A stretch of 64,000 nucleotides of DNA, from the UHGV virus genome UHGV-1351772, one strand, 5' to 3'. This DNA is from a virus. Every line of letters starts with the position of its first letter. Positions within the stretch are counted from its first letter, which is position 1. A program made the position numbers and the translations under genes. The notes beneath the pieces were generated by a model. The model searched no databases. It had not been told where the DNA came from and was given only the letters and a program-made list of their open reading frames with translations. This document shows, piece after piece, positions 4,201 to 54,956 of the stretch.

Positions 4201-7200
4201 GTGACTTTACCGAAGAAACTTTTAGGCTTCATTTCACCTAAAGCGGCTTCGTTGTTCGAGAAAGCACGTGAGTGGCTAAATGAGGTTCCAGAGGGCGCAG
4301 AGAAAACCCGTTTACAAAGCATGATTTCCCGTGTAACGGGAATGCCAGCGCGTTTGTGGAACAATGCAAAACGCGGGTTTGAGAAGCTCAAAGAGTTGGC
4401 TTCTGATAACCCTCTGACACGTTGGTGGCAGAACCGTAAGGAAGGGGGTTCTGGTGGTGGGTTTAGTGTGTTCTCATGGTCGAACGGCCGTAAAACTAAC
4501 CACATCTTAATCCGTATCTACAAACTCCTTAACCGGAGATTGCCAGGTGAACCAGAAGATGATACCTGGACAGAACAGATGGAGCGGAATACGGGAGCCA
4601 GTTCAGTTAAAGGATTATTCCAACGTGCTAAAGACATACGCGATGGGTTCCGTGAACATTTTCAGGGGTTCCGGGATTGGCGCGGTCGGATGCGTGACAG
4701 AATGTCCCGTTATCGCGGTGCGGTAGGCGATCGTCTTTCTCGTTGGGGCGGTACCGCACGTGGTTGGTTTGATCGTTTCCGTGGCCGTGCAAGCGATATG
4801 GTCGATACTTTCCGCGATCCGCGTTACGATATCGGCACACGTTATCGAATGGAGAGTCGTTTAGCAGGACGCGATGACGATGTTGCTGAGTTTTATCGTC
4901 AACACATCTACGCAAGAGGTAAGGTGTCTAAAACACGTATCATCGATGCGGCAAAAGAAGACTTAGACACCGTAACGGATAGCGCTGGACGTGTGATTAA
5001 TAAAGGGAAACAGAAAGCCCGTAGCGTTGGGTCAGCTTTACTGGAACGCCTGAACCGAATGGTTAATCTTCAGGAAATGTCATGGTTTAACACCATGCGT
5101 GATTCTGCGGAAAAAGCAGGTGCTTCGGATGGTTTGTTAAGAACTATGTTCAGTAAGTTCGGCCAACGCAATAAACCGCCTGCCAGTGATGAAAAACGTG
5201 ATTACTTCCAGTTCTTCCGACGCCGTCGTCGTTCTAAGGAAGAGGAAAAGGCTAAGAAAGAAGCCGAGAAGAAAGGTGGTAAGCGCGGGGTGATGGATTT
5301 CCTTAAAGGACTGCCGTTGGTAGGACCGATTGTGAGTATTTTAGGCACAGTAGGTTCAATCTTAGGTAAAGTCGCGAAATGGGGAATCTTTAAGCCGGTT
5401 GGGTTTGCAGGCAAAGCGTTGTGGAACGTTGGTAAGTTTGCTGTGACTCGTTTGGCTGTCCCTGCGGTGAGTGCTGTCGCGACGGCAGCATCTGCAGTGG
5501 TAACTGCGGTTGGCTGGCCGATTATCGGTTTGGTCGCTGCAGGCGCTGCGCTATCTTGGTTTGCATATAAAACTGCAACCCGTGTGAATGCTCAGTATTT
5601 GGATAACATGCGATTGGCACAGTACGGATTTAGAGATCACGATGAGTGGTCTTCCGACGATGGCGCAAAAGCACGTTATTTAGAAGACAACTTGAAACCG
5701 TACATCTCTTATACAGAGAATGGCCAAGCACAGTTGCGTGGTTTGTCCGGTGACGACGTGAAGAAACTGGCCGAAGGGTTTGGTACTAACGTAGAAGACA
5801 AAGGCGAAATGCTGGCGTTTAGTGCGTTTATGCTACAACGTTTTGTGCCGATCTATTTACGTTGGATTACGGCACTGAAATCCATGGATAATGATATCGC
5901 GTTAGCAGATGTCGGTAATCCTGCGAAAGTGTCGAAGGCAGACATGTTGAATATCTTCAACAAAATGAAGATGTCGAAAGATGCGCCTGCATTCCGTGCA
6001 TTAGAAGATCCCCGCAAGGTTAACCAAGGTTGGTTCTCTAAAGCGTGGGATTTCGTAACGTTTACCCCGGCCGAGTTTTTGTCAGGCGAAGAAGTCGTTG
6101 AAGCGCAAGAACGCGTGCTTCGTTCGATTAACATGCGTCGTGATGAAAAACGTAAGGATGTAAATGCTACAGGCGGTGTGGCCGAAGGACACAAAGTTGC
6201 TTCTGTGGCAGAATCGACCCAAGCGTTGGCTCAAGCGGATGCGGAACGCAACAAAGAAGTTGCGAAAGTCGAAGGTTGGGAAGACGGCACCGAACAAGTT
6301 CAGGTTCAAGTCGACTGGAGAAGCTTACCTAAAGAAACCGATCTCCGTGATTTGGAGTCCGTAAGGTTGAAAGCTTATGGTGCGGTGAGTATTACTCAAA
6401 CAACCCGTAACCTCTATACGCTCTTGGAACGTCAAGTGTTGCAAGACACCGATGTGAAAAGCTGTACGTATAAAGGCGACTGGAAACGTGCGATTGCGGT
6501 GATTGCGCCTGACGCCATTGGTGGGCCAAAAGAAGATCGGTACAAGAACTGGTTCTATAACCGCTTCTTACCTGTCTTCATGACGTACGTGGTTGGGGTG
6601 AAACGTTATGTCCCTGCTGCCGATCCGATGGACCTACGCGTTACGGGTGGGTTCTTGTATGAAATCGCACTGATGATGCGTGGTGCATACAACCTGAAAG
6701 GGGGTATTCGTCAGTCAGTGTGGGAGGTACCGTTTAACCCGTTAGGGGGAGACGCTAACACCGACGCCGGTTCAGTTGCAACGGAGTTAGAGAACCTGAA
6801 AGAACTGTCTAAGGAAGCTGATTTGGCAGTACGTAAAACGCTGCGTGCTACGCCTTCTGCGGGTTTCCGTGTGAACTGGCAGCGAAAAGATCGCGCGACT
6901 CAGATGTTCTTGACCGACGATGAGAAGGAGCAACCGTCTCGACCACAGATGAACACCTCCTCCTCTTATCGTGACCTATTGCAACCAGCGGCAAACGACG
7001 GTGGGAATTACGGCACACCAAACGATTTGGCCGGTGCTTACGGTCAGATGGGAGCTAAGAATTACGCTGCATTTACTACCGGTAACTTCGGCGTGAAACT
7101 TGGCGATATGCAAGACGGTGACTATAAAACGTTAGCGGCTAAGTATCCAATTTCAACGTTGGGTGACGGATTGAAGCCTAACTTGAATGCGGTTGCAGCA

Positions 7201-8337
7201 CTGATTACAGACGTAGCGAAGATGATGGGTGTTCCTCCAGCGTTAGCACTGGGAATGGCACAAGCAGAATCTGGGCTTAGATACGGTATCAAAGCTAAAG
7301 GAAGTTCTGCGGCTGGCTTGTTCCAGTTCATCAACGATACCTGGGGTGCGCAGATGAAAGCTTATGCGAGACGTTATGGTATCCCGCAAACCAACCAGTA
7401 TGACCCGTGGGCGAATGCTCTGCTTGGCGTCCGTCATATTCGTGATAATATCGAGAAAGCCAGAAAGGATTTAGGTGGTATCGATCCTCCAGGTGCAGCT
7501 GTTTACCTCTACCACTTCTTAGGACAAGGTGGCGGTAAGAAATTCCTGCAAGAATGGAAGCGTGATCCGAACGGGCCATCGTCGCGTGGTGCGTCGGCCG
7601 ATCAAATCGCGGCAAACAGCACAATTTTCTACAAGAATGGAAAATTGCGTAGTTTGGATGAAGTGCTCAACATCATGGGTGGTAAGATTGGTGCTGTAGG
7701 AACAAACGCGATCGCGGCTAACCAGGCATCGCTGAAAGACTTGACGACAGGCGTAACACCAATGCCGTCTTCCCCGGCTATCGCTGCAGGCGCTGCTAAC
7801 GATCCGTCTATCACAGGCCCGGCAGATAACCTGCCAGCCGCGAACGAGGCGAATCGCGACTCCGCTTTAGCAGACAAAGGCGCGATGGGTGCTGAAGATA
7901 TTAAAGCTGCAACTGGTGGTGGTCCGGCTGTGCCGAGTCCTGGCGGCGATGTCACGCCGAGCGATGCGTCAGTTGTTGTAGAGACGGTGGGTCAAAATGC
8001 ACGTGCTGATGGCCTGGCCGAAGAAGAGGTTGCTAAAGTAAAAGAAGGTGCTAGACAGCAGATGGAGAAATCGGCCCGTCCTGCACCAACGGTAACTTCC
8101 GATGCTCAGAGCGGTTCTACAGTGAACAGTGGTGATCCGATCAGTGTACAACAGCTGGCGGTTGCAAAAGAGTCTGCAGGCTATCTGAAAGAGATTGTAA
8201 CAATTCTTCGCCAGCGGCCACAGGCTATGCAAAACGGTCCGGCTAACCCGGCGTCAACCGCTCCGGGTTCGGCGTCACGTAACGTGTCAATAACTCAACC
8301 CGCGCCGCAACTCGACGTTAGTCGTAAATCAGCGTAA
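1261..8337 (+). CDS. Giant virion-associated protein (2358 aa) with lytic transglycosylase domain; tail lysin / tape-measure-like
   Basis: Single uninterrupted ORF. Long helical N-terminal half with Gly-rich and basic RKRRRKRKR segments, hydrophobic cluster about aa 1335-1440, SLT motif near aa 1980-2100, Ala/Pro/Gly-rich C-terminus. Size and domain order resemble phiKZ gp181-type tail lysins (from memory, not searched). Confidence 0.8.
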   Translation: MDDWDDFDEPPRQQDQSRNPVMDTFRAARKSALSTIWPENKRDQVILKGMPKPAAEAYEGYQNVKAAGQDILAHTKDEIEKTSRVVKMQARQLGPTLKRYLPESVTRKIDKWARNDQIDYGNYDPKQAMMDRELDSVFSGAPQTADQQREAQEGMVEDRLRDTIKDMKSDALFQTVIGIAKDVNLTTSLSRGVLLNVQRKQLELQYRTLFALQDIAKLKQDEFARNTPALEAIVKNTALPDYAKEEFSEIRWANVKRKAAEWMNPLHYADNFIGQIRENAKKKISNIFSDGRGILEQVLGMAQEDDFDMSDSSSLSPDRRNTNSRNKAAGFAGGWLAKRLLQPQIERLQNWTRGELEKNPEVMKRLQLAKYGFGNLSSISNSAIAGETSGPLADLFRLMHDLGLVNPLRRETLALDDRSAESLSAAAKFDRKAYLSITEVIPTLLSEINKSIRRGYGEHHDQVYDLTTRGMVDRKVIGNRVRKAVANDDQRKRLQTYINDTVDFIDKDKTLDRKTRQALADYIESRASEGKAFDVGSLLKDPMHMYRYMNANAVEAIQGVLEARSAELVGGHHELSNAISNKIAAIQSTIRARQDTVDAASVIYGENALRDSGIFKYDAKKDIFEVDKDINDPYTLFNDLSMGKTRSGRSLTREQEIQRKLQNGSALGDYLRRMGAGAEPSFEDKELSNVRGGGKGGRGRGLSARQLAAVLYGEKSTNFVELLSSRPDTNAGLEQQFDRLIDAVRKQPESSTVQDILKHVKNMDEEGILLASLGGSRDDGDESESSSDSGRKRRRKRKRIVLGETGLLRRWAGVLWDTGSGVGRFGKNLFLRGKDRLQALGGFIRGKFSGGSSEGPGVFSRLKGLVTGTLSTGWNSAVAFGKGVLGVRDIYDERGNVVLQGSRLEAGEYYQADPKTEKLIQLKTLDDIKLGRDIVDEAGNLILAAADLAAAGKLRFYKGGKVQALFQYISGKAGTAVNKAVTLPKKLLGFISPKAASLFEKAREWLNEVPEGAEKTRLQSMISRVTGMPARLWNNAKRGFEKLKELASDNPLTRWWQNRKEGGSGGGFSVFSWSNGRKTNHILIRIYKLLNRRLPGEPEDDTWTEQMERNTGASSVKGLFQRAKDIRDGFREHFQGFRDWRGRMRDRMSRYRGAVGDRLSRWGGTARGWFDRFRGRASDMVDTFRDPRYDIGTRYRMESRLAGRDDDVAEFYRQHIYARGKVSKTRIIDAAKEDLDTVTDSAGRVINKGKQKARSVGSALLERLNRMVNLQEMSWFNTMRDSAEKAGASDGLLRTMFSKFGQRNKPPASDEKRDYFQFFRRRRRSKEEEKAKKEAEKKGGKRGVMDFLKGLPLVGPIVSILGTVGSILGKVAKWGIFKPVGFAGKALWNVGKFAVTRLAVPAVSAVATAASAVVTAVGWPIIGLVAAGAALSWFAYKTATRVNAQYLDNMRLAQYGFRDHDEWSSDDGAKARYLEDNLKPYISYTENGQAQLRGLSGDDVKKLAEGFGTNVEDKGEMLAFSAFMLQRFVPIYLRWITALKSMDNDIALADVGNPAKVSKADMLNIFNKMKMSKDAPAFRALEDPRKVNQGWFSKAWDFVTFTPAEFLSGEEVVEAQERVLRSINMRRDEKRKDVNATGGVAEGHKVASVAESTQALAQADAERNKEVAKVEGWEDGTEQVQVQVDWRSLPKETDLRDLESVRLKAYGAVSITQTTRNLYTLLERQVLQDTDVKSCTYKGDWKRAIAVIAPDAIGGPKEDRYKNWFYNRFLPVFMTYVVGVKRYVPAADPMDLRVTGGFLYEIALMMRGAYNLKGGIRQSVWEVPFNPLGGDANTDAGSVATELENLKELSKEADLAVRKTLRATPSAGFRVNWQRKDRATQMFLTDDEKEQPSRPQMNTSSSYRDLLQPAANDGGNYGTPNDLAGAYGQMGAKNYAAFTTGNFGVKLGDMQDGDYKTLAAKYPISTLGDGLKPNLNAVAALITDVAKMMGVPPALALGMAQAESGLRYGIKAKGSSAAGLFQFINDTWGAQMKAYARRYGIPQTNQYDPWANALLGVRHIRDNIEKARKDLGGIDPPGAAVYLYHFLGQGGGKKFLQEWKRDPNGPSSRGASADQIAANSTIFYKNGKLRSLDEVLNIMGGKIGAVGTNAIAANQASLKDLTTGVTPMPSSPAIAAGAANDPSITGPADNLPAANEANRDSALADKGAMGAEDIKAATGGGPAVPSPGGDVTPSDASVVVETVGQNARADGLAEEEVAKVKEGARQQMEKSARPAPTVTSDAQSGSTVNSGDPISVQQLAVAKESAGYLKEIVTILRQRPQAMQNGPANPASTAPGSASRNVSITQPAPQLDVSRKSA
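5305..5570 (+). other. Hydrophobic/transmembrane-like segment cluster inside the giant protein
   Basis: GLPLVGPIVSILGTVGSILGKVAKWGIF...AVPAVSAVATAASAVVTAVGWPIIGLVAAGAALSWFAY: several consecutive hydrophobic helices. Confidence 0.5.
7198..7572 (+). other. SLT (family 1 lytic transglycosylase) domain within giant protein
   Basis: GMAQAESGLRYGIKAKGSSAAGLFQFINDTWGAQMKAYARRYGIP ... LYHFLGQGGG: E-S catalytic motif and GLFQF..TW pattern typical of lysozyme-like lytic transglycosylases. Confidence 0.7.
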
Positions 8338-8384: not shown

Positions 8385-10556
8385 GTGGACGCTAGATCAG
8401 CTAACGACTCAAGCTGGGTCAGAAATCTATTTAAGGGAGAGTTGGAAGGCCGAGATGAACGTTTTCTGGCCTTGCGACGCTACTCTAACGGTATGATGTC
8501 TTTTGAAGATACGACCATGGGCGGTAGCAAAGCGATTAATAGCCCTCCACAGTTTACGTGGTTTGCAGACCCCCCATCAACAGGGGCATTTGCACGACCC
8601 GGTAATCGTGAAGCGGAGAAAAAGGCGTTGGCTAACGGTATGCCAACCTCTTCTTATCGCTTAGGGACGTATTATTACGAAAGCATTAACCAAAATTCGT
8701 TTTACGTACATTGTCGCTTCGGCAAGCCGAAATATCTGGGAATGGCCGCATTCTTTGCGAATATGTACGATTCCAACTTAGCGTATTTAGCGCGTACGGG
8801 CGATTATCCGGGAATGATCCGCACGATAGCAAGTTATATCGGTGCGGCAGCGATATGGGCCACTGTAGGCACTGTCGCTTTTGCGGTAATTTTAATTACT
8901 CCTCGCATTCTCGCAGCAGCGTTGAATAAACAAACGTCGCGTTACTATTACGTTAAACCGACGATGCATCTGTATTTGCGTGCTGTACAGAACATCTTGA
9001 ATACGCAGCTTGTTTATCGTCGTTTGGTTCCCACGGGTATCTTAGGTACCTTCCAGGTTAGTCAAGACGGCGATGGAAAAGGGAACAAAAAAGCACGTGA
9101 TGATGCTTTTGAAGCGTTGCCGGAGGTTTGGAAAAAAGACGGTGAATTCGATGTCTTTAAGATGATCAACCGTTATCAAACCCTGGCGAACTATCAGAAT
9201 CAACGTTTAAAAGAACTTCGTAAGCAGTCCTCAAGTGACGATGATTTCGCCGAGCGGATACGAAATTTCTATTTGGACAGCACATATGGTGCGGCTTCGT
9301 ATTCTGACGATGTGAGAAATTACGAAGTTTCTTTGCAAGACATGGAGCGGTTAGCTGCATCCGAGCGCGGTGGCTATGCGGCGAAAGACGCGTCGGGCAA
9401 AGATATTAATAGTGTTGATGAACTGGAAAAAGGGGTTCTCGATGCGTTTAGTTCCGGGCTACAAACTGGGGGAACGGCAAGCGACCTAGAGGCGCAGGCG
9501 GCAGAAATCCAAAACAAAATGAACGAGGATTTGGAAAATGCCGATGCGAGTAACCTCACCGAGGGACAACAGATTACGATACAGTCCTGGGCGGATAAAG
9601 GTAAAGAATCGACTATGGAGACGTTCTTCGGCGACTTTGTTAAAGTGGTTGGCGAACAGATTGAAGGGATTAAAGCACAGGCGCTGTCCGAAATCTACAA
9701 CGGTTCTCAGTGGGTAACCTGGAGAATCGATGGGAAGGACACCGTCTCTCGTTCGTTCTCTAACTCTACAAAAGAGCCGGAGATCTCTAGCACAGTTAAC
9801 TCAATGACAGCGAAAGCTCGTCAACTTGAAGTAAACTTGTCCGGCGGGCAAACCGGCTTCAACGCGGTCGATTCATTAATTACGGGCTTTAAGTCCGTAA
9901 TGCGTGGGTTAGCAGATACGTTGCATCTAACGGGGATTATGTCGTTATATAATTCATCCGTCATTGACTTCCCAGAGGTGTGGGACAGTTCAGATGCCTC
10001 GGGCGATGATATTAACTTGACAATACCTTTACGTGCATGGTCTGGAAGTGACCTGGATATCTTCCAGGAAATTCTAGTGCCACTATCCTTTTGGATCGCC
10101 GCAGTATGTCCAATTGCGACAGGTAAACAATCGTTCACTCATCCGTTTTATCTGGAGTGTTACTCGCAAGGTCGATTCTCGTTCCGTAATGCTATCGTAA
10201 CATCTTTGTCTTTACAATTCGGTGTGGGTGGTTTAGGTTGGCGACCAGGTGATTCTGTTCCACTGTCTTGTGATATCAATGTTACCATCCGTGATTTGTC
10301 GCGTGTGATGTATATGCCCATCGTTACAGACACAGGTGTTTGGGACGACGATAATAAATTCAGTGAGTTTATGGCGTGTTTGGGTGCAGCGACGTTGTAC
10401 GAACGTACGAACGGTATAGAGCGTGCCAAGATCCAAGGAAGCATTTGGGCGCAGAACTGGGCATCTGCGTGGTCACAGGGCAGTTTTATTAACTCTGCGT
10501 TTGATGTGCTTCCAGCACGCCAGATCGCGAACATCTTCTTGCCGCAAGCACGTTAA
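8385..10556 (+). CDS. Hypothetical protein, 723 aa, probable virion/tail protein (one predicted TM segment)
   Basis: GTG start at 8385 with AGAGG upstream; long ORF co-directional with and immediately after the giant virion gene; hydrophobic stretch AAIWATVGTVAFAVILITPRILAAAL. Confidence 0.65.
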   Translation: MDARSANDSSWVRNLFKGELEGRDERFLALRRYSNGMMSFEDTTMGGSKAINSPPQFTWFADPPSTGAFARPGNREAEKKALANGMPTSSYRLGTYYYESINQNSFYVHCRFGKPKYLGMAAFFANMYDSNLAYLARTGDYPGMIRTIASYIGAAAIWATVGTVAFAVILITPRILAAALNKQTSRYYYVKPTMHLYLRAVQNILNTQLVYRRLVPTGILGTFQVSQDGDGKGNKKARDDAFEALPEVWKKDGEFDVFKMINRYQTLANYQNQRLKELRKQSSSDDDFAERIRNFYLDSTYGAASYSDDVRNYEVSLQDMERLAASERGGYAAKDASGKDINSVDELEKGVLDAFSSGLQTGGTASDLEAQAAEIQNKMNEDLENADASNLTEGQQITIQSWADKGKESTMETFFGDFVKVVGEQIEGIKAQALSEIYNGSQWVTWRIDGKDTVSRSFSNSTKEPEISSTVNSMTAKARQLEVNLSGGQTGFNAVDSLITGFKSVMRGLADTLHLTGIMSLYNSSVIDFPEVWDSSDASGDDINLTIPLRAWSGSDLDIFQEILVPLSFWIAAVCPIATGKQSFTHPFYLECYSQGRFSFRNAIVTSLSLQFGVGGLGWRPGDSVPLSCDINVTIRDLSRVMYMPIVTDTGVWDDDNKFSEFMACLGAATLYERTNGIERAKIQGSIWAQNWASAWSQGSFINSAFDVLPARQIANIFLPQAR

Positions 10557-16404: not shown

Positions 16405-16432
16405 TACCCTACTCCTAGTCAGGAGTAGGGTA
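16405..16432 (-). terminator. Rho-independent terminator, CCCTACTCC-stem family
   Basis: TACCCTACTCCT-AGTC-AGGAGTAGGGTA hairpin, U-run on minus strand downstream; sits 5 nt after stop of 16437-17096. Confidence 0.7.
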
Positions 16433-20592: not shown

Positions 20593-20620
20593 AATTCACT
20601 CCTAAAGAATGTCTCACGTA

Positions 20621-20630
20621 GATAATATCT
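20621..20630. promoter_or_regulatory. GATAATATCT element in divergent intergenic region (candidate -10-like promoter element)
   Basis: Exact 10-mer also at 29737 and 39226; lies 29-38 nt upstream of minus-strand ATG 20592 and 34-43 nt upstream of plus-strand ATG 20664. Confidence 0.35.
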
Positions 20631-20663
20631 GTCTGACTTCTTTTTGAAATTGAGGTAGTAAGA

Positions 20664-24599: not shown

Positions 24600-24697
24600 C
24601 GAGCTTTACCTTTATGGAAGAGTCTCGGTCATAAGGTTTGGGTGAACTGTAAAAAGACTTTACTATGTAACCCTGACTTATAATCCGAGGTTTTAGA

Positions 24698-25486
24698 ATG
24701 AATGTAAATCCACTTGCAGCGTTATCTAGCTTCGCCGCTAAAGCGTCTGCAATCTTACCGAAAGGGTTTAGTGGCCCTCAACAAGAGATTGCATTAACCA
24801 CTTATGACGAGATGTCGGACGTTTCCAAGTGGATGCAACAAGAAAAATTCCTACACTTTGCGGGAATGTTGGTTATCGTTCCACCTGGGTTTAATACCTA
24901 CGTGATGGATCACTTGAACCGCTTAGAATCTGTATGGAGTTCACTACAAAACATCTATACGGGTATTCTGCTACCGGTCGATAAACAACTTTCGGCCCTT
25001 ACACATGATGTGGGGGTACTGTCATTACCGATTGGTTTCCGTTACAAAAACGTTAATTTACCGTTACGTAATGTTAACCCGAAAGACCTGGTTAACTTAT
25101 TAGCGAAATCGTACACTAATAACGTTATTGACCAGCGACCAATTGAGAAGACGTACCACAGCGCGTCTGAGATTGACGTTGCGTTCAATCGTGCTAAAGC
25201 CCTGAACGTTGAAATTACGAAACGTTTACGGACGAATATCGACAAGTCAATCGAGTCCATTCGCACTACGTCAGAAATCTTGTCCGAACAAAACATTCAT
25301 CCGAATGTAGCAAAAGAACTGACGATGATGTTAGATTTTGCATCCGATTGGGTGGAGCTGTTTGGTCTGTTCATGAAACAGGTTAACGAGTTAATCGAAT
25401 GCCTGAACGTTACTGCCGAACGCTTAAAAGCGCTTAAGGCAAACAAAAATAAAAAAGTAAAGTTACCCCTAGACCGTGTGGTCTAG
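24698..25486 (+). CDS. Hypothetical protein, 262 aa (plus-strand gene embedded in minus array)
   Basis: GAGG SD; TTATAAT -10-like box about 15 nt upstream of the SD; stop codon lies inside terminator hairpin. Confidence 0.6.
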   Translation: MNVNPLAALSSFAAKASAILPKGFSGPQQEIALTTYDEMSDVSKWMQQEKFLHFAGMLVIVPPGFNTYVMDHLNRLESVWSSLQNIYTGILLPVDKQLSALTHDVGVLSLPIGFRYKNVNLPLRNVNPKDLVNLLAKSYTNNVIDQRPIEKTYHSASEIDVAFNRAKALNVEITKRLRTNIDKSIESIRTTSEILSEQNIHPNVAKELTMMLDFASDWVELFGLFMKQVNELIECLNVTAERLKALKANKNKKVKLPLDRVV

Positions 25487-29708: not shown

Positions 29709-29736
29709 TTTAATAACTCCAATGGTGTTACACCTG

Positions 29737-29746
29737 GATAATATCT
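29737..29746. promoter_or_regulatory. GATAATATCT element (candidate promoter -10 region for gene starting at 29708)
   Basis: Exact 10-mer; same spacing to the minus-strand ATG as at 20621. Confidence 0.35.
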
Positions 29747-35748: not shown

Positions 35749-35780
35749 TACCCTACTCCTTCGGGAGTAGGGTAGCTTTT
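35749..35780. terminator. Bidirectional terminator, CCCTACTCC-stem family
   Basis: TACCCTACTCC-TTCG-GGAGTAGGGTA followed by GCTTTTATTTT; A-run upstream gives a U-run on the minus strand. Confidence 0.75.
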
Positions 35781-36362: not shown

Positions 36363-36392
36363 TTAACCCTACTCCCGGAGGAGTAGGGGATT
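36363..36392 (-). terminator. Rho-independent terminator, CCCTACTCC-stem family
   Basis: CCCTACTCC-CGGA-GGAGTAGGG, U-run on minus strand. Confidence 0.7.
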
Positions 36393-47435: not shown

Positions 47436-47807
47436 TTAAATAACTGTGTTGGGTAATGCTTTAATCTGTGTATAACTATCTCCGATACCTCTTATCATTT
47501 CCAGACGCTCTTCTGTAGAAAGGCTTTGGTTAATGTCTTTGTCAAGATTGAACAGTGTCAAGAGTTTTGCAATTGCAACCGTCAAGTTGTCGGACAGCTC
47601 GTTGTTTTTACGCCATTCTTCGTTACGGAAAATAGAGATAAGGTCTTTCGCCTGGCCTTCAGCGTGCGGTTTGGCTAACTGCGCGTCACGCTGTTCGATA
47701 AGGTATGCTTCGTTAGTAAGTAAACGTTTCAGGTTTTCTGGGTTAGTGGCAGCGCGAGTAACGATCATTAATACAACAAACGGGTCTTTAAATAATTCGT
47801 TTTTCAT
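47436..47807 (-). CDS. Hypothetical protein, 123 aa
   Basis: ATG 47807 with AGGAG SD; conserved hairpin plus 21-mer module upstream. Confidence 0.6.
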   Translation of the reverse strand: MKNELFKDPFVVLMIVTRAATNPENLKRLLTNEAYLIEQRDAQLAKPHAEGQAKDLISIFRNEEWRKNNELSDNLTVAIAKLLTLFNLDKDINQSLSTEERLEMIRGIGDSYTQIKALPNTVI

Positions 47808-47860
47808 CTTTAGTTCTCCTAAAATGGTTTTCGTTAAGTGAGAGCTTTTGTACTCTCACC

Positions 47861-47881
47861 TAAGTAATATATATCTGAAAT
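47861..47881. promoter_or_regulatory. Conserved 21-mer TAAGTAATATATATCTGAAAT preceded by hairpin (47838-47859)
   Basis: 20 of 21 nt identical to 52147-52167; contains GTAATATATA; lies 54 nt upstream of minus gene start 47807. Confidence 0.45.
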
Positions 47882-47896
47882 TATTTTTAATAATAA

Positions 47897-47936: not shown

Positions 47937-48515
47937 TTATACATCGAACCGGTACTGCCGGGAGTTAATGAGGAACTCGGTATTCAGCTCAATCCATTCG
48001 AGTAAATCGCCCAACGGTAATCGGTTTGGGTTTTCTAACTCAATAGACGCTACCGGATAAGAGTTTACTAATTCCGTAATTGCCTCAATACCCTCTTGCG
48101 TTCCATCGTCTTCTAAGGTGATTGTAAACGGCATATCGGTACGATCCGCATTAGGATTGTACAAACTGACTTTCGTTGCTTGGACAAACGCAGTCAGGTC
48201 GTCACGTATAATGCGTGTATCAGGCGCTAGAACTACCCAGAGATGTTGTCCAGGCTGGAGTTTACGTTTTGCGTAGTTTAAGAACGGATTAGCCGGTAAG
48301 CTTTCCAAACCACTGCAAATGTTCCGTAAATGAATACCTCGTGGGTCTTTATAGTCCACGCTGAAGATTCCTACCGGTTCCTTCGCTGCCTGTTTTATCA
48401 GAAAGACCAATACCGTGTCCGCTCTTTCTGGTAAGGAAAGCTCTATTCCCTCAAGCTCCCCATCGACGAGGTTTTCCAACCAAACGTCTTTTCGCATTTC
48501 TATTAATCGGTACAC
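47937..48515 (-). CDS. Hypothetical protein, 192 aa
   Basis: GTG 48515 with GAGGTGG SD. Confidence 0.55.
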   Translation of the reverse strand: MYRLIEMRKDVWLENLVDGELEGIELSLPERADTVLVFLIKQAAKEPVGIFSVDYKDPRGIHLRNICSGLESLPANPFLNYAKRKLQPGQHLWVVLAPDTRIIRDDLTAFVQATKVSLYNPNADRTDMPFTITLEDDGTQEGIEAITELVNSYPVASIELENPNRLPLGDLLEWIELNTEFLINSRQYRFDV

Positions 48516-48527
48516 GGTACCACCTCA

Positions 48528-49301
48528 CTATTGATTAAGTTTTACATCGGCAATAAACAGCAATTGTTTACCATGTTGCTGCACTTCTTTCCAACCCAGT
48601 TTCATAGCAGCGTCAACAACATCTAACATGCTGTAACGGGACATCAACGCGGTTGATTTTGTTCCTGACATTAAATAAAGTGGCTCATTAGGGCAACGGT
48701 CTCGAGCATCAGGAAGTTCTCGAATAACCACTGAGCCTTCGGGTACGGTAACAACATGAATCACGGTAAATGGTCTCTTGTGTGTTAAGTAGATACGGAA
48801 CCCAACGTGTTCAGATTCATGAAAGATTTTCTTCACGACCACATCTTTCAGTGTCGTCTGAACATCAGCCCCAGGTAATATCGTGGTTTCACGTGAAACG
48901 AAGCAACGACTATTTTCAATCGTGGAGAAATAATTACGTATCGGCAAACTGGCGTTATGATCGCGCAGTTTTTTGCTCAGTAGATCGAAGTTCAGTTCTT
49001 TAACTTTTTCTAACCACTCTTTGGCTTGTTGAATGTAATAACTACCGACAGCGCGATAAGTTAATACCTTACCTGTGCTCACTTGCCAAAGCTTGATGCT
49101 TAGTGAATTTGGCTTATAGCGACGATACTCACCCCGCGTATGGTTGATGCGCTCGTAACGCTCTACATCATCAACGGGTGCAGATTCGACCGATTGTAAT
49201 TGCAGCGTACGATCTAATCTATCGGCAAATAGTAGTGATGTTAGCGAACCTTCGATCATATACGGTTCGGTTTTAAAGATATCGTCTAAATGGACTTTCA
49301 T
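48528..49301 (-). CDS. Paralog family member 1 (C-terminal GW..V...G.QLLF motif)
   Basis: 257 aa; ends KLGWKEVQQHGKQLLFIADVKLNQ; N-terminus MKVHLDDIF similar to member 4 MRELLDDIF. Confidence 0.65.
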   Translation of the reverse strand: MKVHLDDIFKTEPYMIEGSLTSLLFADRLDRTLQLQSVESAPVDDVERYERINHTRGEYRRYKPNSLSIKLWQVSTGKVLTYRAVGSYYIQQAKEWLEKVKELNFDLLSKKLRDHNASLPIRNYFSTIENSRCFVSRETTILPGADVQTTLKDVVVKKIFHESEHVGFRIYLTHKRPFTVIHVVTVPEGSVVIRELPDARDRCPNEPLYLMSGTKSTALMSRYSMLDVVDAAMKLGWKEVQQHGKQLLFIADVKLNQ

Positions 49302-49309
49302 TTCTATTT

Positions 49310-49342
49310 CCTTCTTAACAAAAGCCGCGACTAAAGCGCGGC
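49310..49342 (-). terminator. Hairpin terminator (minus strand)
   Basis: GCCGCG-ACTAAA-CGCGGC hairpin plus U-rich tract on minus strand. Confidence 0.5.
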
Positions 49343-49368
49343 AGTTAGAGAAAGTGTAGTTTCACTTA

Positions 49369-50520
49369 TTAAATGTTGGCAACAAACAACAGTTGGCTGC
49401 CGTATTTTTGCACGTCAGCCCAACCGTAGTCTTTCCCGATTATAGGTAGATGTAAAGCATCCAGCTTCTCGTCTTTCGCCTTCAGTTTCGCCACTAACGC
49501 ATTGGACTCCTCAGCACCGAGCAGTAATGCGGGTTCTTTTTCAGTACGTCCTTCTGCGGTCGGGAAGAAATCGTAATAGCTGCGAGTAGGTAAATCGACA
49601 GAAAAACTACGATTGCCTATTGTGATGAAGAACGCAACTCCTTCACAGTTAACATCTACACTACACGACCACCCCGCCTCTGTTAAAAGGTCTTTTAACA
49701 GACACCACACTTTAAGTTGGTTCTTAGAAAGTGTACGGTAGATAGCAAGATGGTCAGGAAGTAAATGCACCGCCATAATCATGTTTTCACATTTCTCGTC
49801 AAGCAACCTTGGATGTTGAATCGGGAACAATAATTCACTGATACCCACGTTATCAATTTTGTTAACAAAATCAGTTAATTCATCTTTTAAGGTACGCACG
49901 GATTTTTCTCCTTCGACTTCAATAATCTGGTGGGGTTCGCCGCTAATTAAAATGTGGTAAACGATGTCGTCGGTAGAACGGTAAGTGAGTTTGATAGCTT
50001 TATCACTTAACATTTCGTAGCGGAAGAAACTTTCGTACCAAGTTGACCCGAAATCGTTTCGTGTAAGTTCCTGCTCAACTTTGATGGTTTTTGCTTCAAA
50101 GCCGATTAACCCGCTTAATAACGCGAGTTCTGGTTTAGTTAAAATGCCCGCACCGTGAAAGGGCACTTTCTCAAGCTGAAAACATAAATTACTGACTTTA
50201 CCACTTGGGAAGACCTTAAACATAATCTTCCGGCTGCTACTCTTTTCCCTAACAACGAGTTTACGGTAATTTAGTCCACAATTTGTGTAAACCGCGAACT
50301 TGTAACCTTCAATTTCTTCATCGTAAGTACAGACATCGACAGGTGCGATAATCTCATTGTATTCAGTAAGTACACAGCAGCCCAAGTTATAACCAAACAA
50401 CTCACGTTGTAATGAAGACTCGATGGTTAAGCTTGGTAGTGACCAAACCCGATTATAGCATCTGTCCATCAGTTCTTTTAGGATCTTGGCATGTCCTGGT
50501 TTAGAAATAATATTACGCAT
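49369..50520 (-). CDS. Paralog family member 2
   Basis: 383 aa; ends KDYGWADVQKYGSQLLFVANI; AAAGGAG SD. Confidence 0.65.
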   Translation of the reverse strand: MRNIISKPGHAKILKELMDRCYNRVWSLPSLTIESSLQRELFGYNLGCCVLTEYNEIIAPVDVCTYDEEIEGYKFAVYTNCGLNYRKLVVREKSSSRKIMFKVFPSGKVSNLCFQLEKVPFHGAGILTKPELALLSGLIGFEAKTIKVEQELTRNDFGSTWYESFFRYEMLSDKAIKLTYRSTDDIVYHILISGEPHQIIEVEGEKSVRTLKDELTDFVNKIDNVGISELLFPIQHPRLLDEKCENMIMAVHLLPDHLAIYRTLSKNQLKVWCLLKDLLTEAGWSCSVDVNCEGVAFFITIGNRSFSVDLPTRSYYDFFPTAEGRTEKEPALLLGAEESNALVAKLKAKDEKLDALHLPIIGKDYGWADVQKYGSQLLFVANI

Positions 50521-50550
50521 TTTTACTCTCCTTTAGTGTTTTTTCGTTAC

Positions 50551-51105
50551 TTAAGCAGGGTAAGCTAAGAACAACAGCTGCTGGCCGATTTTACGTACGG
50601 TATACCAACCGTGGGCTTTAGCGACCGCGATCAACGTTTCCCAGTCGTCAACATCGCACTGTTCATTCCGAAGTCTTGTAAAGAGTGCCTCGGCTTCGCT
50701 TTGGTTTAATAACTTACCTGGGTTGTCTGGGGTGCAGTCAGTAGGGGTTGGAAAGAAAGTATACTGACGCGCTAGGAGAAAATCGACCAGATACTTGGTA
50801 TTTTCTTTATAAACCAGCGTGGAAGACTTTCCTTCGTGGAAGAAGCTGCCTGTTTTCCAAGCGCTATCCCCCAGTAAGCTCTGAAGGTAATCTGTAAAGC
50901 CCGTTCTGAAAGGGATATGGTTTTTACGTGTGATGTTACGACGCAGCGGGGTTTCCTCTACAGCTTGTACACTTACCCCTACTATCATCGCACCTGGCTG
51001 AATAATGCTATTGGTCAGTACGGTATAAGGACGGACAAAGAAATGTTCGCCTACGCCCTTTTCAAGGGTTTGGATAATTTCATTTTTCAGTTCAGTTTGA
51101 AACAT
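50551..51105 (-). CDS. Paralog family member 3
   Basis: 184 aa; ends KAHGWYTVRKIGQQLLFLAYPA. Confidence 0.65.
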   Translation of the reverse strand: MFQTELKNEIIQTLEKGVGEHFFVRPYTVLTNSIIQPGAMIVGVSVQAVEETPLRRNITRKNHIPFRTGFTDYLQSLLGDSAWKTGSFFHEGKSSTLVYKENTKYLVDFLLARQYTFFPTPTDCTPDNPGKLLNQSEAEALFTRLRNEQCDVDDWETLIAVAKAHGWYTVRKIGQQLLFLAYPA

Positions 51106-51136
51106 GGTATATTCTCCTTTTTTTCGGTTTTCTTAA

Positions 51137-51874
51137 TTACGCAGTTTTAATTAACAGCAGATAGTCCTTCGTAATCTCAGCACAACTCCACCCTCTCATC
51201 GTGGCGATTTTACGAAGATCAATTTTCTCGTGATATTTCAATAAGGGATCGTCCGGGTTAATTTCAACCAGGTGTGTGGCTTTAGAAATCGTTTCCACAT
51301 CTGGGATCTGTTTTGCTAAGTCGGATGCAATCAGTTCAATAACGCGGTATCCCTTTAACACAGAAACATAGATGCGCAAGCCATATAGCGTGCCCTCGTC
51401 TTCTAATGGACAAAGATCGATGCCGGGTCCAAGCAGTGATAACTCGACGTTATCGGGAAGGTTTTCTGCATTTCGGAGTAACCCTATCCCATTTCTAAAC
51501 AGAGGGAAGTAAGAGAATAGTGGTGGTAAAGGCCAACCGTTCCCAATAAGCACATCATCGATACTAGTAGGCGTGTTCGCAAGAAGACGAATGTGGTCAG
51601 CCACAACTTCAAGTTCGGCATCACTGATCAACTTATAGATTAACATGACGCTGGTTTCGGTATTAAAAACAAAGAAGACGCGGTTGGCGTAACTACCTAT
51701 CACGTATTCGTCAATCAAGCAGTCGATAACGTCACTGTCTGGATAATCTTCAGGTTTAATTGTTCCAGCATCGATTAACTTAGCAGGTTGCGATTGTTTT
51801 ATTAGTTCGTTAACCACCGTAGAAGAAAGTTCTAAACTGGTATTGGTAAAGATATCGTCTAATAATTCTCTCAT
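51137..51874 (-). CDS. Paralog family member 4
   Basis: 245 aa; ends TMRGWSCAEITKDYLLLIKTA; first gene leftward of the divergent regulatory region. Confidence 0.6.
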   Translation of the reverse strand: MRELLDDIFTNTSLELSSTVVNELIKQSQPAKLIDAGTIKPEDYPDSDVIDCLIDEYVIGSYANRVFFVFNTETSVMLIYKLISDAELEVVADHIRLLANTPTSIDDVLIGNGWPLPPLFSYFPLFRNGIGLLRNAENLPDNVELSLLGPGIDLCPLEDEGTLYGLRIYVSVLKGYRVIELIASDLAKQIPDVETISKATHLVEINPDDPLLKYHEKIDLRKIATMRGWSCAEITKDYLLLIKTA

Positions 51875-51968
51875 GATTTACTCGCTAATCCCAATGAAGG
51901 GAAGGCTATTATTATGGATTGTAAAAGAGGTATAAGGAAGTCACTACGTTCCTCTGGGAAGAGTATGT

Positions 51969-52035
51969 CGGTATACTCCGTATACCTCCGCTATTTATAT
52001 CCGTATACATAATGCCCCTACCCCTACCGGTATCC
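51969..52035. repeat. Iterated palindromic GTATAC-core elements (c[cg]GTATAC x3 plus ccGGTATCC) in divergent intergenic region
   Basis: cgGTATACtccGTATACctccgctatttatatccGTATACat...ccGGTATCC; GTATAC is self-complementary. Confidence 0.5.
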
Positions 52036-52113
52036 CGAGTAGCAGAATAAAGGGTCATAATGTAATTTTTTAGTAACCTTTAACGAAAGGTACTAAAAGG
52101 GTAACGTGTCCGT

Positions 52114-52167
52114 AGGGACTGAACTGGTACTTCAGTCCCTATTCACTTAAGTAAAATATATCTGAAA
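52114..52167 (+). promoter_or_regulatory. Hairpin (AGGGACTGAA...TTCAGTCCCT) followed by conserved 21-mer TAAGTAAAATATATCTGAAAT, upstream of plus-strand tail module
   Basis: 21-mer ends 27 nt before ATG 52194; near-identical copy at 47861. Confidence 0.5.
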
Positions 52168-52193
52168 TCAATTCCGATCTAAGGAACGTCCCG

Positions 52194-53159
52194 ATGGAGA
52201 AATCCAGTGTTGATTTTTTCTCAATTGGTATCGTCGCGGAAGACAAACCCCGTGGTACAGATCGGGTAAAAGTGATACCAATTGAAACTAACTTTGCTAA
52301 CCCTACTGTGGTGCAATCTGTTTCTTCAGCAACTGAAAAGACGCATGAAACATCTGGTGCAACAGATAACCTAACCATTAAGACGGGAAACACGATAACG
52401 GCAAAGTGGTGGAAGTTTAACTCCAACCGAATTAATTCCCCTGACGTTAAACGAGAAGATTACGTTATCTTGTTACGTTTGGGGAAAACCGATATTTATT
52501 TTTGGATTGATCTGAACTTCGCTAACGTTAAGCGATTAGAAGATGCGGTTTATGCGTGGTCGGCTGACCCTGAAAACCAAATGGCGGATGACTTGTCCAA
52601 TGCGTATGTGTTGAACGTTTCGACGATTGACAAACATATCACGCTAAGAACAAGTATGGTGAACGGTGAGAAAGCGGCGTGGTTGTTTCAGTTTGATAAT
52701 GCAAACGGTACGTGGCAGTGCGTTGACCATAAAGGAAACAAGTATTACATTAACTCGGTTGAAGATGATCTCGGGTTTGAGAATGCGATGCTTTCAAAAG
52801 TGAACATCAACAAAGAAGATGCGTTCATTTATTCAAAGCGTTCTATTAACCTGGAAACGAAAACGATTAATGAAAAATGCGAAGTCCGCAATACGGAAGC
52901 AGCGAATTCCGTTACGTTTAAAACACAAACCTGGTTAACAGAAGCGGGCAGTTCGACAACGTTTAAAACGCCGAACTTTAAACAAGAAGGGAAGGAAGCG
53001 ATGTTCACCGGTAATTTGGAAGTCGCTAAGAACTTCAAATACGGTGGTACGGGTGAGGGTGTGGGTGTCTTTACGGTTAAAGATGCCGTTATTTCCGGTA
53101 TTACCTTTAGCGTTCACATTCACCAAGGTAAACATGGCCCGACATCACCTCCGCAGTAA
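52194..53159 (+). CDS. Putative virion (baseplate/tail) protein, 321 aa
   Basis: AAGGA SD; first gene of plus-strand module leading to tail fibres; no confident motif. Confidence 0.6.
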   Translation: MEKSSVDFFSIGIVAEDKPRGTDRVKVIPIETNFANPTVVQSVSSATEKTHETSGATDNLTIKTGNTITAKWWKFNSNRINSPDVKREDYVILLRLGKTDIYFWIDLNFANVKRLEDAVYAWSADPENQMADDLSNAYVLNVSTIDKHITLRTSMVNGEKAAWLFQFDNANGTWQCVDHKGNKYYINSVEDDLGFENAMLSKVNINKEDAFIYSKRSINLETKTINEKCEVRNTEAANSVTFKTQTWLTEAGSSTTFKTPNFKQEGKEAMFTGNLEVAKNFKYGGTGEGVGVFTVKDAVISGITFSVHIHQGKHGPTSPPQ

Positions 53160-54888: not shown

Positions 54889-54956
54889 AGCTCTTTTCCT
54901 CTATAGATTCAAGTCATAGTATGAACTTCGACGCCCACGGACTATAGGAGTAGAGA

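Follow-up and report, generated by a model that had tools for sequence, protein, structure and literature searches.

Genomic context of the spacer

The window analysed in the present study (the whole stretch of 64,000 nt) belongs to a phiKZ-like jumbo phage, whose nearest kin are the Erwinia phages phiEaH2/Stratton and the Salmonella SPN3US-type phages. The spacer at 51875-52193 is bounded by a minus-strand ORF on its left (51137..51874) and by a plus-strand ORF on its right (52194..53159), and the claim of an earlier note that it is a regulatory region parting divergent gene blocks was upheld. The rightward ORF was assigned to phrog_3216 (baseplate assembly protein; PHROG E = 1.4e-113), and its product shares 73% identity with phiEaH2 gp095 and Stratton. 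The leftward genes (47937..51874, minus strand) encode proteins of 245, 184, 383, 257 and 192 aa, of which the 184-, 383- and 257-aa proteins are paralogs with 30-34% identity. This paralog array is linked to phiEaH2 gp097, whose gene likewise comes after an early promoter. A terminator scan detected terminator-like sites in the leftward block at 49342-49324 and 47932-47913.

A megablast search of the region against phage records returned no match; thus, protein-level and pattern searches were required. Neither a sigma-70-like promoter nor an intrinsic terminator (GC-rich hairpin plus U-tract) was found in 51700-52400. Previous studies have reported that phiKZ-like phages transcribe independently of host RNA polymerase, and the closest relatives, SPN3US and PhiEaH2, appear in the list of RNAP-encoding jumbo phages. 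Among the 20 window proteins that were scanned, no RNAP subunit was detected. The features on which the earlier note was built (the GTATAC copies, the hairpin and the 21-mer) were all found where it had placed them.

An early promoter at 52.1 kb and its copy at 47.8 kb

The 21-mer at 52148-52168 was the reverse complement of a published jumbo-phage early promoter, and its minus-strand reading was ATTTCAGATATAT(T/A)TTACTTA(A/G)GTGA. It lies within an early-class (virion-RNAP type) promoter at 52142..52181 on the minus strand, the AT-rich core of which, TATATTTTAC, is the reverse complement of 52151-52160. Early promoters of jumbo phages have been described as an AT-rich block of ~10 nt near -10, with an extended -10 and a T-rich upstream part in phiKZ; the published consensuses are TTTCARRYAKATATTATYWAAGTGWA for N1M2, ...TATATTACDWHDGTG for 201phi2-1 and TATATTAC for phiKZ. 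Both promoter cores of the window with their flanks fitted the N1M2, OBP and 201phi2-1 consensuses, and the core was of the phiKZ TATATTAC type. As in the early promoters of phiKZ, 201phi2-1, OBP, N1M2 and EL, a TATAT[A/T]TTAC block was present near -10, flanked upstream by TTTCAGA and downstream by (A/G)GTG, and several copies per genome stood ahead of short genes of unknown function. Unlike the phiKZ-group promoters, the consensus here was that of the Erwinia/Salmonella branch, TTTCAGATATATATTACTTAGGTGAGAG.

The promoter profile scored the 52.1-kb copy on the minus strand at E = 2e-9, with a lower bit score (33.6 vs 43.4 bits). Only two sites of the window matched the profile strongly; each lay on the minus strand upstream of minus-strand genes, and two weak variants in the 64 kb also lay on the minus strand ahead of minus-strand genes. 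The core regular expression matched only 52151-52160 and 47864-47873, both on the minus strand, and a search for the 21-mer at <=3 mismatches returned only 52148-52168 and 47861-47881, with 0 matches in 100 shuffles. The exact 20-mer TTTCAGATATATWTTACTTA was found at 20 loci in 13 jumbo-phage contigs, and a near-identical IMG/VR contig carried three exact copies. A same-strand ORF started 1-67 nt downstream of the 20-mer in 17 of 19 distinct instances, the exceptions being the focal copy and one locus that ended before any ORF; in these 19 instances, RGTGAGAG and a hairpin usually stood directly 3' of the motif. These results confirmed the earlier note's view of the hairpin and 21-mer as a genuine repeated regulatory module, and they reversed its assignment of the 21-mer to the tail module, because the motif is a minus-strand early-promoter consensus that faces the leftward genes.

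The second early promoter (47852..47892, minus strand; profile E = 1.7e-12) contains the 21-mer copy at 47861-47881, with one mismatch and the core TATATATTAC (47864-47873). Here the earlier note was correct in reporting that the 21-mer recurs at 47861 directly after a hairpin, which occupies 47839-47860 on the plus strand. The arms of this hairpin are GTGAGAG (47839-47845)...CTCTCAC (47854-47860), with a folding energy of -15.4 kcal/mol (z = -6.0). In the direction of transcription, the terminator 47932-47913 precedes the promoter, which is followed by the 5' hairpin, a Shine-Dalgarno sequence and the gene 47436..47807. The 47861 copy would thus be the next early promoter, directly after the terminator of the unit of the 52.1-kb promoter.

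Read from the sequence, the 52.1-kb promoter points left to the paralog array and away from the baseplate gene, whose ATG (52194) is 25 nt from the 21-mer rather than the 27 nt given previously. Transcription is predicted to start leftward at ~52145 +/- 3, presumably by the virion polymerase. The promoter most likely serves the leftward genes 47937..51874, and the baseplate gene is its rightward neighbour, not its target. The promoter itself is an ordinary early promoter, and several features set the focal copy apart. Most of the 19 instances, and the 47.8-kb copy (…TTATTAAAAATAA), had a T/A-rich region upstream of ~-19; the focal copy was without this T/A-rich block, and the ribosome-binding region of the baseplate gene occupied its upstream side. 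Its predicted leader was ~275 nt compared with ~50 nt for the other copies and 30-60 nt for the phiKZ-group promoters. In relatives L003 and L012, the promoter serves a 25-codon ORF that has been lost from the window. The focal copy could be weak or vestigial, and it differs from phiKZ-group early promoters in the missing T-rich part, the long leader and the back-to-back arrangement with a late structural gene.

Hairpins in the predicted leader

Folding and covariation identified a 10-11-bp stem-loop at 52113..52141 (minus strand) in the 5' leader, just downstream of the inferred early start. Its arms are AGGGACTGAA (52114-52123) and TTCAGTCCCT (52131-52140), the loop is 52124-52130, and a T52113-A52141 pair gives 11 bp. 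The minus-strand fold had an energy of -17.3 kcal/mol (z = -3.7), and the plus-strand fold one of -17.8 kcal/mol (z = -4.1). In 11 distinct close relatives, 98.3% of cells paired, compensatory changes were observed at three pairs, and the covariation score was reached by 0 of 500 shuffles. Two natural mismatches (L032, L034) read as A.C in the minus-strand sequence, whereas the plus strand would have G.U at these sites, which hints that the plus-strand RNA of this hairpin may matter too.

In the transcript, a few nucleotides would separate the stem from the 5' end. Stem-loops at the 5' terminus, such as the ompA 5' hairpin, stabilise bacterial and phage mRNAs. By analogy, the 10-11-bp hairpin most likely protects the early mRNA from 5'-end-dependent decay. 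Like the ompA-type stem-loops, it is a stable hairpin located at the predicted 5' end or a few nucleotides away and kept by compensatory change; it differs from them in the ~5 unpaired nucleotides ahead of the focal stem and in two natural variants whose pairing is better on the other strand. The likeness to the N4 virion RNA polymerase promoters consists of a virion-packaged polymerase and 5-7-bp short-loop hairpins near early promoters. In N4, a hairpin upstream of the start is the recognition element of a single-subunit polymerase, whereas the present promoters have a linear AT-rich block as their conserved recognition element, with the hairpin on its downstream side.

A second leader hairpin, AGTAACCTTT/AAAGG-TACT, was detected at 52072..52094 on the minus strand (-10.1 kcal/mol, z = -3.3). 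At the same site, relative L012 carries a different yet complementary stem. This hairpin was considered as a terminator and rejected, since it is without a U-tract.

A conserved non-coding element upstream of the baseplate gene

Comparison between relatives and a covariance model revealed a conserved non-coding element of ~135 nt at 51925..52060 (plus strand). From left to right, an A-rich block is followed by the AAGGA-N-GTC motifs of unit A (51934-51953) and unit B (51961-51969), by a variable stem-loop with TCCG after it and, beyond a linker, by the C-rich box CCCCTACCCC (52015-52024). Its orientation was fixed relative to the baseplate gene, and every related clade examined had the element upstream of that gene, the most distant at 42-45% protein identity. 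The covariance model gave a single match in the 64-kb window (51955-52029, 57.3 bits; runner-up 15.1 bits) and recovered Derbicus-type copies, which had been left out of the model, at E ~1e-5; blastn placed the element at one place per record. It has no conserved reading frame, and the differences in loop and stem length are not multiples of three. In more distant phages (phiKZ-like SL2, Vibrio Yong MS32 and Aeromonas PS1; protein identity 26-36%), the spacers are 24-75 nt and without the element; thus, phiKZ transcript maps are not transferable to this locus.

The C-box lies 81-91 nt upstream of the ATG in other clades. In the window's clade, insertion of the promoter, alone or together with the 25-codon ORF, has widened this distance to ~174-281 nt. 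Rfam 15 gave only noise for the spacer (E >= 0.47), nothing at E <= 1 for four relatives and, at gathering scores, no match anywhere in the window. The GenBank records inspected carried no annotation of an RNA or a regulatory feature on the element, and a literature search for conserved non-coding RNA in phages of this group found nothing relevant. The element is the modestly novel part of the spacer.

Several leads did not hold. Masking of the baseplate Shine-Dalgarno sequence by the C-box or the 3' arm of unit A was rejected, because the complementarity was inconsistent across clades (9/11 in L008; 8 bp in the window, 51946-51953 vs 52182-52189). Aeromonas phage pAEv1810 carries AATAAAGGAAGTCACTACGTTCC and a CCCTACCC box at another locus; with a blast E of 5 and no hit by the covariance model, homology is unproven. 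A scan of IMG/VR with the pattern AGAATAAAGGADGTC returned >120 contigs, mostly random, and the pattern was too short to inform.

GTATAC sites and the variable stem-loop

As the earlier note described, three c[cg]GTATAC copies lie within 40 bp, at 51971, 51980 and 52003 (with cg before the first and cc before the other two), and a degenerate fourth copy, ccGGTATCcc, is present at ~52028-52036. A rough Poisson estimate put the chance of three sites in 38 bp at ~5e-4. The other 12 GTATAC sites of the window were inside ORFs or at 207 in another spacer, and the 15 sites in total compared with 14.0 expected, showing no global excess. The motif search within the window therefore bore out the earlier note for the 21-mer, which recurs once and upstream of a minus-strand gene, and not for GTATAC, which is not enriched elsewhere.

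Copies 1 and 2 form the arms of the variable stem-loop GGTATAC-TCC-GTATACC (51970..51986, plus strand), which is closed by G-A/TCC pairing of 51961-51963 with 51987-51989. GTATAC was confined to the window's clade and was missing from the homologous element of every other clade, where GGTGAC, GGTATCC, GGTAGC, GGTACTC, GGTACCC, GGAT, GTCT or GGAG was found instead. The corresponding stems are GGTGAC/GTCACC, GGTATCC/GGATACC, GGTAGC/GCTACC, GGTACTC/GAGTACC and GGTACCC/GGGTACC (the last in L212), and L080 carries GGAT/ATCC. The full stem was kept in six clades despite the differing sequence, with the inner positions remaining complementary, and the weaker variants retained 4 bp or the outer pairs only. 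The loop is 3-6 nt (9-11 nt in the weaker variants), and the total length is 16-18 nt. RNAalifold and pair counts revealed compensatory changes in 21 cells, spread over 5 of 6 stem pairs; the covariation score was 0.48 compared with 0.13 in shuffles (0/500).

These comparisons indicated that, at copies 1 and 2, selection acts on pairing and not on the hexamer. Since pairing is conserved and the hexamer is not, the GTATAC copies do not appear to be iterated operators, as had been proposed. The third GTATAC (52003..52008) is a clade-specific part of the variable linker and aligns to the non-palindromic AATACA or CACACA elsewhere. In single-sequence folding, the GTATAC hairpin was not the minimum-energy fold on the plus strand of the window (z = -1.5), and the unit A hairpin gave z = 0.06; the case for both hairpins rests on the comparison between clades. 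All variants of the variable stem were pure Watson-Crick, so DNA extrusion and RNA folding are indistinguishable on this basis.

Comparison of the element with known phage regulators

The phiKZ late promoter consensus has been reported as TATG, with the start at the G, and the middle promoters as an A-rich repeat plus TACT. In other clades and in relatives L003-L005 of the window's clade, a similar GTAAAAAAG...TA(G/A)TATG motif comes after the element, just ahead of the baseplate gene; the window itself lacks the proximal TATG. The 5' end of the element carries a GTWAAAAG...AAGGA(T)G block similar to the phiKZ late/middle promoters. Unlike in the phiKZ late promoters, where TATG is strictly required, the residue before the G in AAGGA-N-G varies (T, A, G).

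The element also resembles sRNA005 of 201phi2-1, a 5'UTR-derived sRNA upstream of phiKZ gp182 homologues (PMC11512511), in that both are structured non-coding sequences, conserved in jumbo phages and located ahead of a conserved tail gene. The window has a gp181 homologue at 1261..8337 and a gp182 homologue at 8385..10556. The gp182-upstream site would be 8338-8384, which is a different locus, and a sequence relation was not seen; identity of the element with that sRNA was therefore rejected.

Discussion

In the present study, we found it probable that the spacer holds two unrelated things, namely a leftward early promoter at its right edge and a conserved non-coding element at its centre-left. 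Transcription would start near 52145 on the minus strand, by the virion-packaged multisubunit RNA polymerase, and would pass through the ~275-nt leader into the leftward genes 51874->49369, probably on to 47937. In the window's clade, the early promoter would be an insertion that separates the element from the baseplate start codon, from which it follows that early leftward transcription would cross the element antisense.

The earlier note had read the three to four GTATAC hexamers as operators for a dimeric regulator, and the hairpin and 21-mer as a rightward tail/baseplate promoter module. The clustering of three hexamers in 38 bp beyond chance, the 25 nt between the 21-mer and the baseplate ATG and a -10-like TAAAAT on the plus strand are consistent with such a model. 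It was largely refuted by the sequence comparison and appears very improbable, as the motif strand and gene context of all other 21-mer copies face the opposite way, no sigma-70-type promoter was found in phages that transcribe without host RNA polymerase, and the hexamers are 135-175 bp from the early promoter core. Moreover, GTATAC is absent in other clades and not enriched elsewhere in the window, while the arms are still complementary at inner positions that half-sites would leave free and vary in spacing within a total length of 16-18 nt; apart from a clade-specific TATG at 51964-51967, no promoter-like motif lies over the hexamers. Even less probable is a role of the 10-bp and neighbouring hairpins as terminators or insulators. 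They are stable and lie between divergent units, but a U-tract follows them on neither strand, the terminator scan was empty there, and divergent genes need no terminator between them; the true terminators of this phage, such as 47932-47913, have a GC-rich stem, a tetraloop and a T-run. The least probable explanation is a small protein encoded by the ATG-initiated 48-codon ORF at 51912-52058 on the minus strand. Most frames of this short region have open segments, no frame was conserved between clades, and hairpin indels (total lengths of 16, 17 and 18 nt) shift the frame.

The element is probably either a structured leader RNA or a promoter-upstream module, and we prefer to read it as a rightward-made structured RNA, or as an upstream module that belongs to the baseplate late promoter and forms a structure. 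That the element acts as DNA, as an upstream module of this late promoter or a divergent promoter hub, seems somewhat unlikely; the structure-forming inverted repeat and the C-rich box would then serve as binding sites for a phage factor or a subunit of the polymerase, with a replication origin as a still less likely variant. Such a role is consistent with the position of the element, in most clades, upstream of the late-promoter-like motif, with a nearly constant distance from C-box to late motif (31-43 nt, mostly 34-37) across variable intervening sequence, and with the Watson-Crick pairing of every stem variant. In the phiEaH2- and SPN3US-type phages, the minus-strand gene adjoins the element without an early promoter between them, which means that a leftward promoter of some kind has to be located within the element or beyond it, and in three clades a minus-strand TATG follows a G-rich box, its G corresponding to 52008 in the window. 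On the other hand, pairing that is kept by compensatory change while stem sequence and loop length vary freely usually marks an RNA, and in L023 and L039 one closing pair is a G.U that exists on the plus strand alone. For an origin, the cumulative GC skew reaches its minimum at 50-52 kb; this signal is confounded by gene orientation, since the orientation switch alone predicts such a minimum, and iterons or an AT-rich unwinding element were not evident.

Tentatively, we propose that, in nucleus-forming jumbo phages of the Erwinia/Salmonella type, the element is a structured regulatory RNA of a previously undescribed kind, or a DNA module that depends on structure. It comprises AAGGA-N-GUC, the variable hairpin, UCCG and the C-rich box (CCCCCUWACCCCC), is tied to the baseplate-hub gene and is single-copy in the window and in each relative's region examined; in the window's clade, it would be crossed antisense from a transposed early promoter early in infection. 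If this is true, antisense early transcription of the element would add a switch for the timing of early and late expression.

Reading the 21-mer on the right strand puts the leftward paralog array in the early, virion-polymerase class and thus corrects its annotation. The consensus TTTCAGATATATATTACTTAGGTGAGAG may be used to find early operons in unannotated Erwinia, Salmonella and metagenomic jumbo phages. In addition, a conserved, structure-bearing module at one late gene would provide a test object for how the non-virion polymerase chooses promoters beyond TATG, and SPN3US offers a genetic system in which the upstream module could be tested.

Genomic setting of the spacer

The spacer at 51875-52193 is followed directly on its right by a gene (52194..53159) for a 321-aa protein, which matched the baseplate assembly family phrog_3216 (E = 1.4e-113). 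The closest relatives of this protein were those of Erwinia phages Stratton and phiEaH2 (73% identity), Asesino and Salmonella SPN3US-type phages, and the most distant of its 290 jumbo-phage matches came from phiKZ-like phages (26% identity). Homologues of phiKZ gp181 and gp182 were located at 1261..8337 and 8385..10556. A search of the phage collection gave no near-identical DNA; copies of 93-100% identity were carried by contigs of 220-229 kb from IMG/VR and metagenomes. The baseplate-protein relatives and the gp181/gp182 homologues indicated, on sequence evidence, that the window is part of an uncultured phiKZ-like jumbo phage. PhiEaH2 and SPN3US have been listed as jumbo phages with multisubunit RNA polymerases of their own. 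Between the gp181 and gp182 homologues, a 47-nt spacer (8338-8384) carried a terminator hairpin, GGGGGTAG-GAAA-CTACCCCC, with T-rich sequence after it; a conserved 5'UTR-derived sRNA of phiKZ and 201phi2-1 has been reported at the matching position (PMC11512511).

A leftward early promoter and its hairpin

The earlier note had regarded the spacer as regulatory, with a hairpin and a 21-mer just before the first tail-module start codon as a repeated module. The 21-mer was located at 52148-52168 (+), 25 nt from the ATG rather than 27, and recurred with one mismatch at 47861-47881; these were the only window matches at <=3 mismatches, and shuffles gave none. The hairpin was also confirmed, 52114-52123 pairing with 52131-52140. 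Minus-strand readings of the two 21-mer copies are ATTTCAGATATATTTTACTTAAGTGAAT and ATTTCAGATATATATTACTTAGGTGAGAG. The predicted early promoter of jumbo phage N1M2 is TBYAWWWWWTTTCARRYAKATATTATYWAAGTGWA, with a near-identical motif in OBP, while 201phi2-1 has ...TTTRARR_BTATATTACDWHDGTG and phiKZ has TATATTAC (PMC7058600). The hallmark of this class is an AT-rich block of ~10 nt, highly conserved and with its centre near -10, and early genes are transcribed from such promoters by the virion-packaged polymerase (PMC7598289; PMC8244752; PMC11512511).

The exact 20-mer TTTCAGATATATWTTACTTA was found at 20 loci on 13 jumbo-phage contigs, with three copies on a near-identical contig. Of 19 distinct instances, 17 had an ORF on the same strand, complete with Shine-Dalgarno sequence, 1-67 nt downstream (one locus stops before any ORF), and RGTGAGAG with its complement typically formed a hairpin directly after the motif. 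A profile built from these instances and run on the 64-kb window gave two strong matches, both on the minus strand, at 47852-47892 (E = 1.7e-12) and 52142-52181 (E = 2e-9). Weak variants, each intergenic and upstream of a minus-strand gene, lay on the same strand at 20611-20636 (degenerate …CAGACAGATATTATCTACGTGAGA) and 29728-29754 (degenerate …TAGATAGATATTATCCAGGTGTAA, then a GGTGTAACACC hairpin). Neither a sigma-70-type promoter nor an intrinsic terminator was found in 51700-52400. The minus-strand match and the gene context therefore placed promoter and then hairpin in leftward order. The spacer held up as regulatory and the module as a repeated unit, but in mirror image of the rightward reading. 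The motif identifies the 21-mer as a minus-strand early promoter that faces away from the tail gene, a further member of an already known class.

The 47.8-kb copy had the standard arrangement: terminator (47932-47913), A/T-rich stretch, promoter, 5' hairpin (47860-47839), Shine-Dalgarno sequence and gene (47807..47436). Under the -10 rule, the 52.1-kb promoter would start near 52145. It would serve 51874..51137, 51105..50551 and 50520..49369, up to a terminator-like site at 49342-49324, and read-through would add 49301..48528 and 48515..47937, up to 47932-47913. The leftward paralog array proposed earlier is real, as the 184-, 383- and 257-aa proteins (48528..51105, -) and phiEaH2 gp097 had a common C-terminal domain (~65-110 aa, 30-34% identity). 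No paralog was detected for the 245-aa protein adjoining the spacer. Since gp097 also lies downstream of an early promoter, the array is probably an early operon.

Within the window's clade (11 distinct sequences), 98.3% of cells in the 10-bp hairpin kept their pairing, with compensatory changes at three pairs (ACT/AGT, GCT/AGC, GTT/AAC, AGC/GCT). No shuffle reached its covariation score, and slid controls dropped to 17-49% pairing. Among near-identical relatives (loci L030, L004 and L005 compared), the loop (52124-52130) occurred in both orientations, GTACCAG vs CTGGTAC and GTGCGAA vs CTCGCAC. The whole hairpin has been inverted on at least two occasions, and the free orientation of the loop implied that the stem alone matters. 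We infer a putative 5' stem-loop of the early leader, by analogy with stabilising 5' hairpins. Two points qualify this reading: about 5 unpaired nt precede the stem, and its only two mismatches (L032, L034) would be G.U in plus-strand RNA but are A.C in minus-strand RNA.

A variable stem-loop within a conserved element

Three GTATAC copies were confirmed at 51971 (preceded by cg), 51980 (cc) and 52003 (cc), with a degenerate fourth at ~52028-52036. The local cluster of three was improbable by chance; across the window there was no enrichment (15 sites vs 14.0 expected). The proposal that they are sequence-specific operators failed three comparisons: conservation, spacing and the kept complementarity of inner positions. 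We compared 25 distinct sequences upstream of baseplate genes and found a block common to all in fixed orientation, which occupies 51925-52060 in the window. It runs from an A-rich stretch and AAGGA-N-GTC through a variable insert to (C)TCCG, a linker, the C-rich box CCCCCT(T/A)ACCCCC and a ~35-nt spacer. In most clades, CGTAAAAAAG...TA(G/A)TATGA followed, then a Shine-Dalgarno sequence and ATG; the phiKZ late consensus is TATG, with the start at G.

The insert (51970-51986) formed a different hairpin from clade to clade: GGTATAC-TCC/TAC-GTATACC in the window's clade, GGTGAC-CGTT-GTCACC in phiEaH2 and Asesino, GGTATCC-TAC-GGATACC in SPN3US-like phages, GGTAGC-AGGGAC-GCTACC in Huxley-like phages, GGTACTC-TGTA-GAGTACC in SPAsTU and GGTACCC-TCC-GGGTACC in pEa_SNUABM_29, with weaker variants (GGAT...ATCC, GTCT...AGAC, GGAG...CTCC) in further clades. 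RNAalifold predicted the stem, with GGA/TCC closing. In a 12-sequence alignment, compensatory changes occurred at 5/6 pairs (21 cells), and the covariation score was 0.48 vs 0.13 shuffled (0/500 reached it; slid controls <=0.14). The changing stems and their covariation indicated that, at the sequence level, GTATAC copies 1 and 2 are the two arms of the window clade's stem-loop; GTATAC equals its reverse complement, so the arms resemble direct repeats. Copy 3 aligned with AATACA or CACACA in other clades, and the fourth lay within the variable spacer beyond the C-box.

A covariance model of the segment from stem-loop to C-box, built without the Derbicus and Phobos copies, matched the window once (51955-52029, 57.3 bits), the runner-up being a terminator (15.1 bits). 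Each related locus also gave a single match, and the held-out copies were recovered at 27.8-30.1 bits (E about 1e-5). Blastn placed the element once per record, and the unit A pattern occurred once per jumbo contig. The element had no conserved reading frame, no Rfam match and no GenBank feature save coding sequences overlapping the match. It was absent from three more distant phages, the phiKZ-like SL2, Vibrio Yong MS32 and Aeromonas PS1, whose spacers are just 24-75 nt.

Several further sequence features were observed. The 3' arm of unit A (51946-51953, ACGTTCCT) is a perfect 8-bp complement of AGGAACGT (52182-52189) in the baseplate ribosome-binding region, kept within the clade and without a consistent counterpart elsewhere. 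In the linker, TATAAATA (51992-51999, -) equals the T4 late-promoter consensus; it is clade-specific and, for a phage of phiKZ type, probably a coincidence. A sequence-conserved terminator hairpin, CCCTACTCC-tetraloop-GGAGTAGGG, recurred at 16407-16430, 35751-35772 and 36367-36388 and in SPN3US-type contigs (L061, L063), its 5' arm resembling the C-rich box (CCCCTACCCC); sequence-conserved terminators are also reported for phiKZ and 201phi2-1. Erwinia ChrisDB, Caitlin and Huxley-type phages (L008, L010, L011, L023) had 3-4 GATC sites clustered within ~100 bp of the element, which lies ~100 nt upstream of their baseplate genes; some of the sites form GATCT...AGATC complementary pairs. The window element has none.

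Promoter rearrangement in the window's clade

For Derbicus, Phobos, L011 and phiEaH2, the closest early promoter pointing left was on the element's left side; in the window's clade, this promoter stood between element and baseplate start codon. The C-box, otherwise 81-91 nt before the ATG, was thereby displaced to a distance of about 174-281 nt, and early leftward transcription would cross the element antisense. A 25-codon minus-strand ORF accompanied the promoter in L003-L005, L012, L033, L034 and L038 and was absent from the window, L030, L031 and L035. This ORF (in L003 at ~2760-2840, MSTEKKSGLDEVIELFKRYNPAIPR) has its own Shine-Dalgarno sequence and lies between the promoter with its hairpin and the element; its window equivalent would fall between 52095 and 52105. 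Its absence thus left the 52.1-kb promoter with a 275-nt leader, strongly structured as a whole (-86 kcal/mol, z = -4.2).

The late-promoter-like GTAAATTTTAAGTAATACTATGA directly after the element was kept in L003-type relatives; its window counterpart, GTAATTTTTTAGTAACC..., lacked TATG, and a clade-specific TATG lay inside unit B (51964-51967). Late-promoter-like motifs were also seen at ~24660-24685 (+, CTGTAAAAAGACTTTACTATGTAAC), upstream of 24698..25486, and ~54917-54928 (+, CATAGTATGAAC), upstream of a 1440-aa virion protein gene; they resemble GTAAAAAAG...TAGTATGA before the baseplate gene in other clades.

Possible roles of the conserved element

We tentatively read the element as a structured RNA, at slightly less than even confidence: pairing was kept while stem sequence and loop length varied freely, and one closing pair was G.U on the plus strand only. 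Every stem was Watson-Crick, which also suits a promoter-upstream or divergent-promoter module acting at the DNA level, a possible but rather doubtful role. Such a module would agree with the position upstream of a late-promoter-like motif and the nearly constant spacing from C-box to motif (31-43 nt). The element of phiEaH2- and SPN3US-type phages adjoins a minus-strand gene without its own early promoter, which suggests a leftward promoter in or near the element, and a minus-strand TATG came after the G-rich box in three clades. Other roles take up the remaining probability.

Unlike the promoter of known class, the element is the part that deserves follow-up. At another locus, with terminators on both sides, Aeromonas phage pAEv1810 (L067, 2480-2560) carries GATTAAAGAATAAAGGAAGTCACTACGTTCC and then GCCCTACCCGGGC, which resemble unit A and the C-box. 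The site lies between convergent genes, beside gp249, a large endolysin-like gene, and the neighbouring gp248. It was missed by the covariance model and its homology is unproven; if the homology is true, the element would be an autonomous unit.
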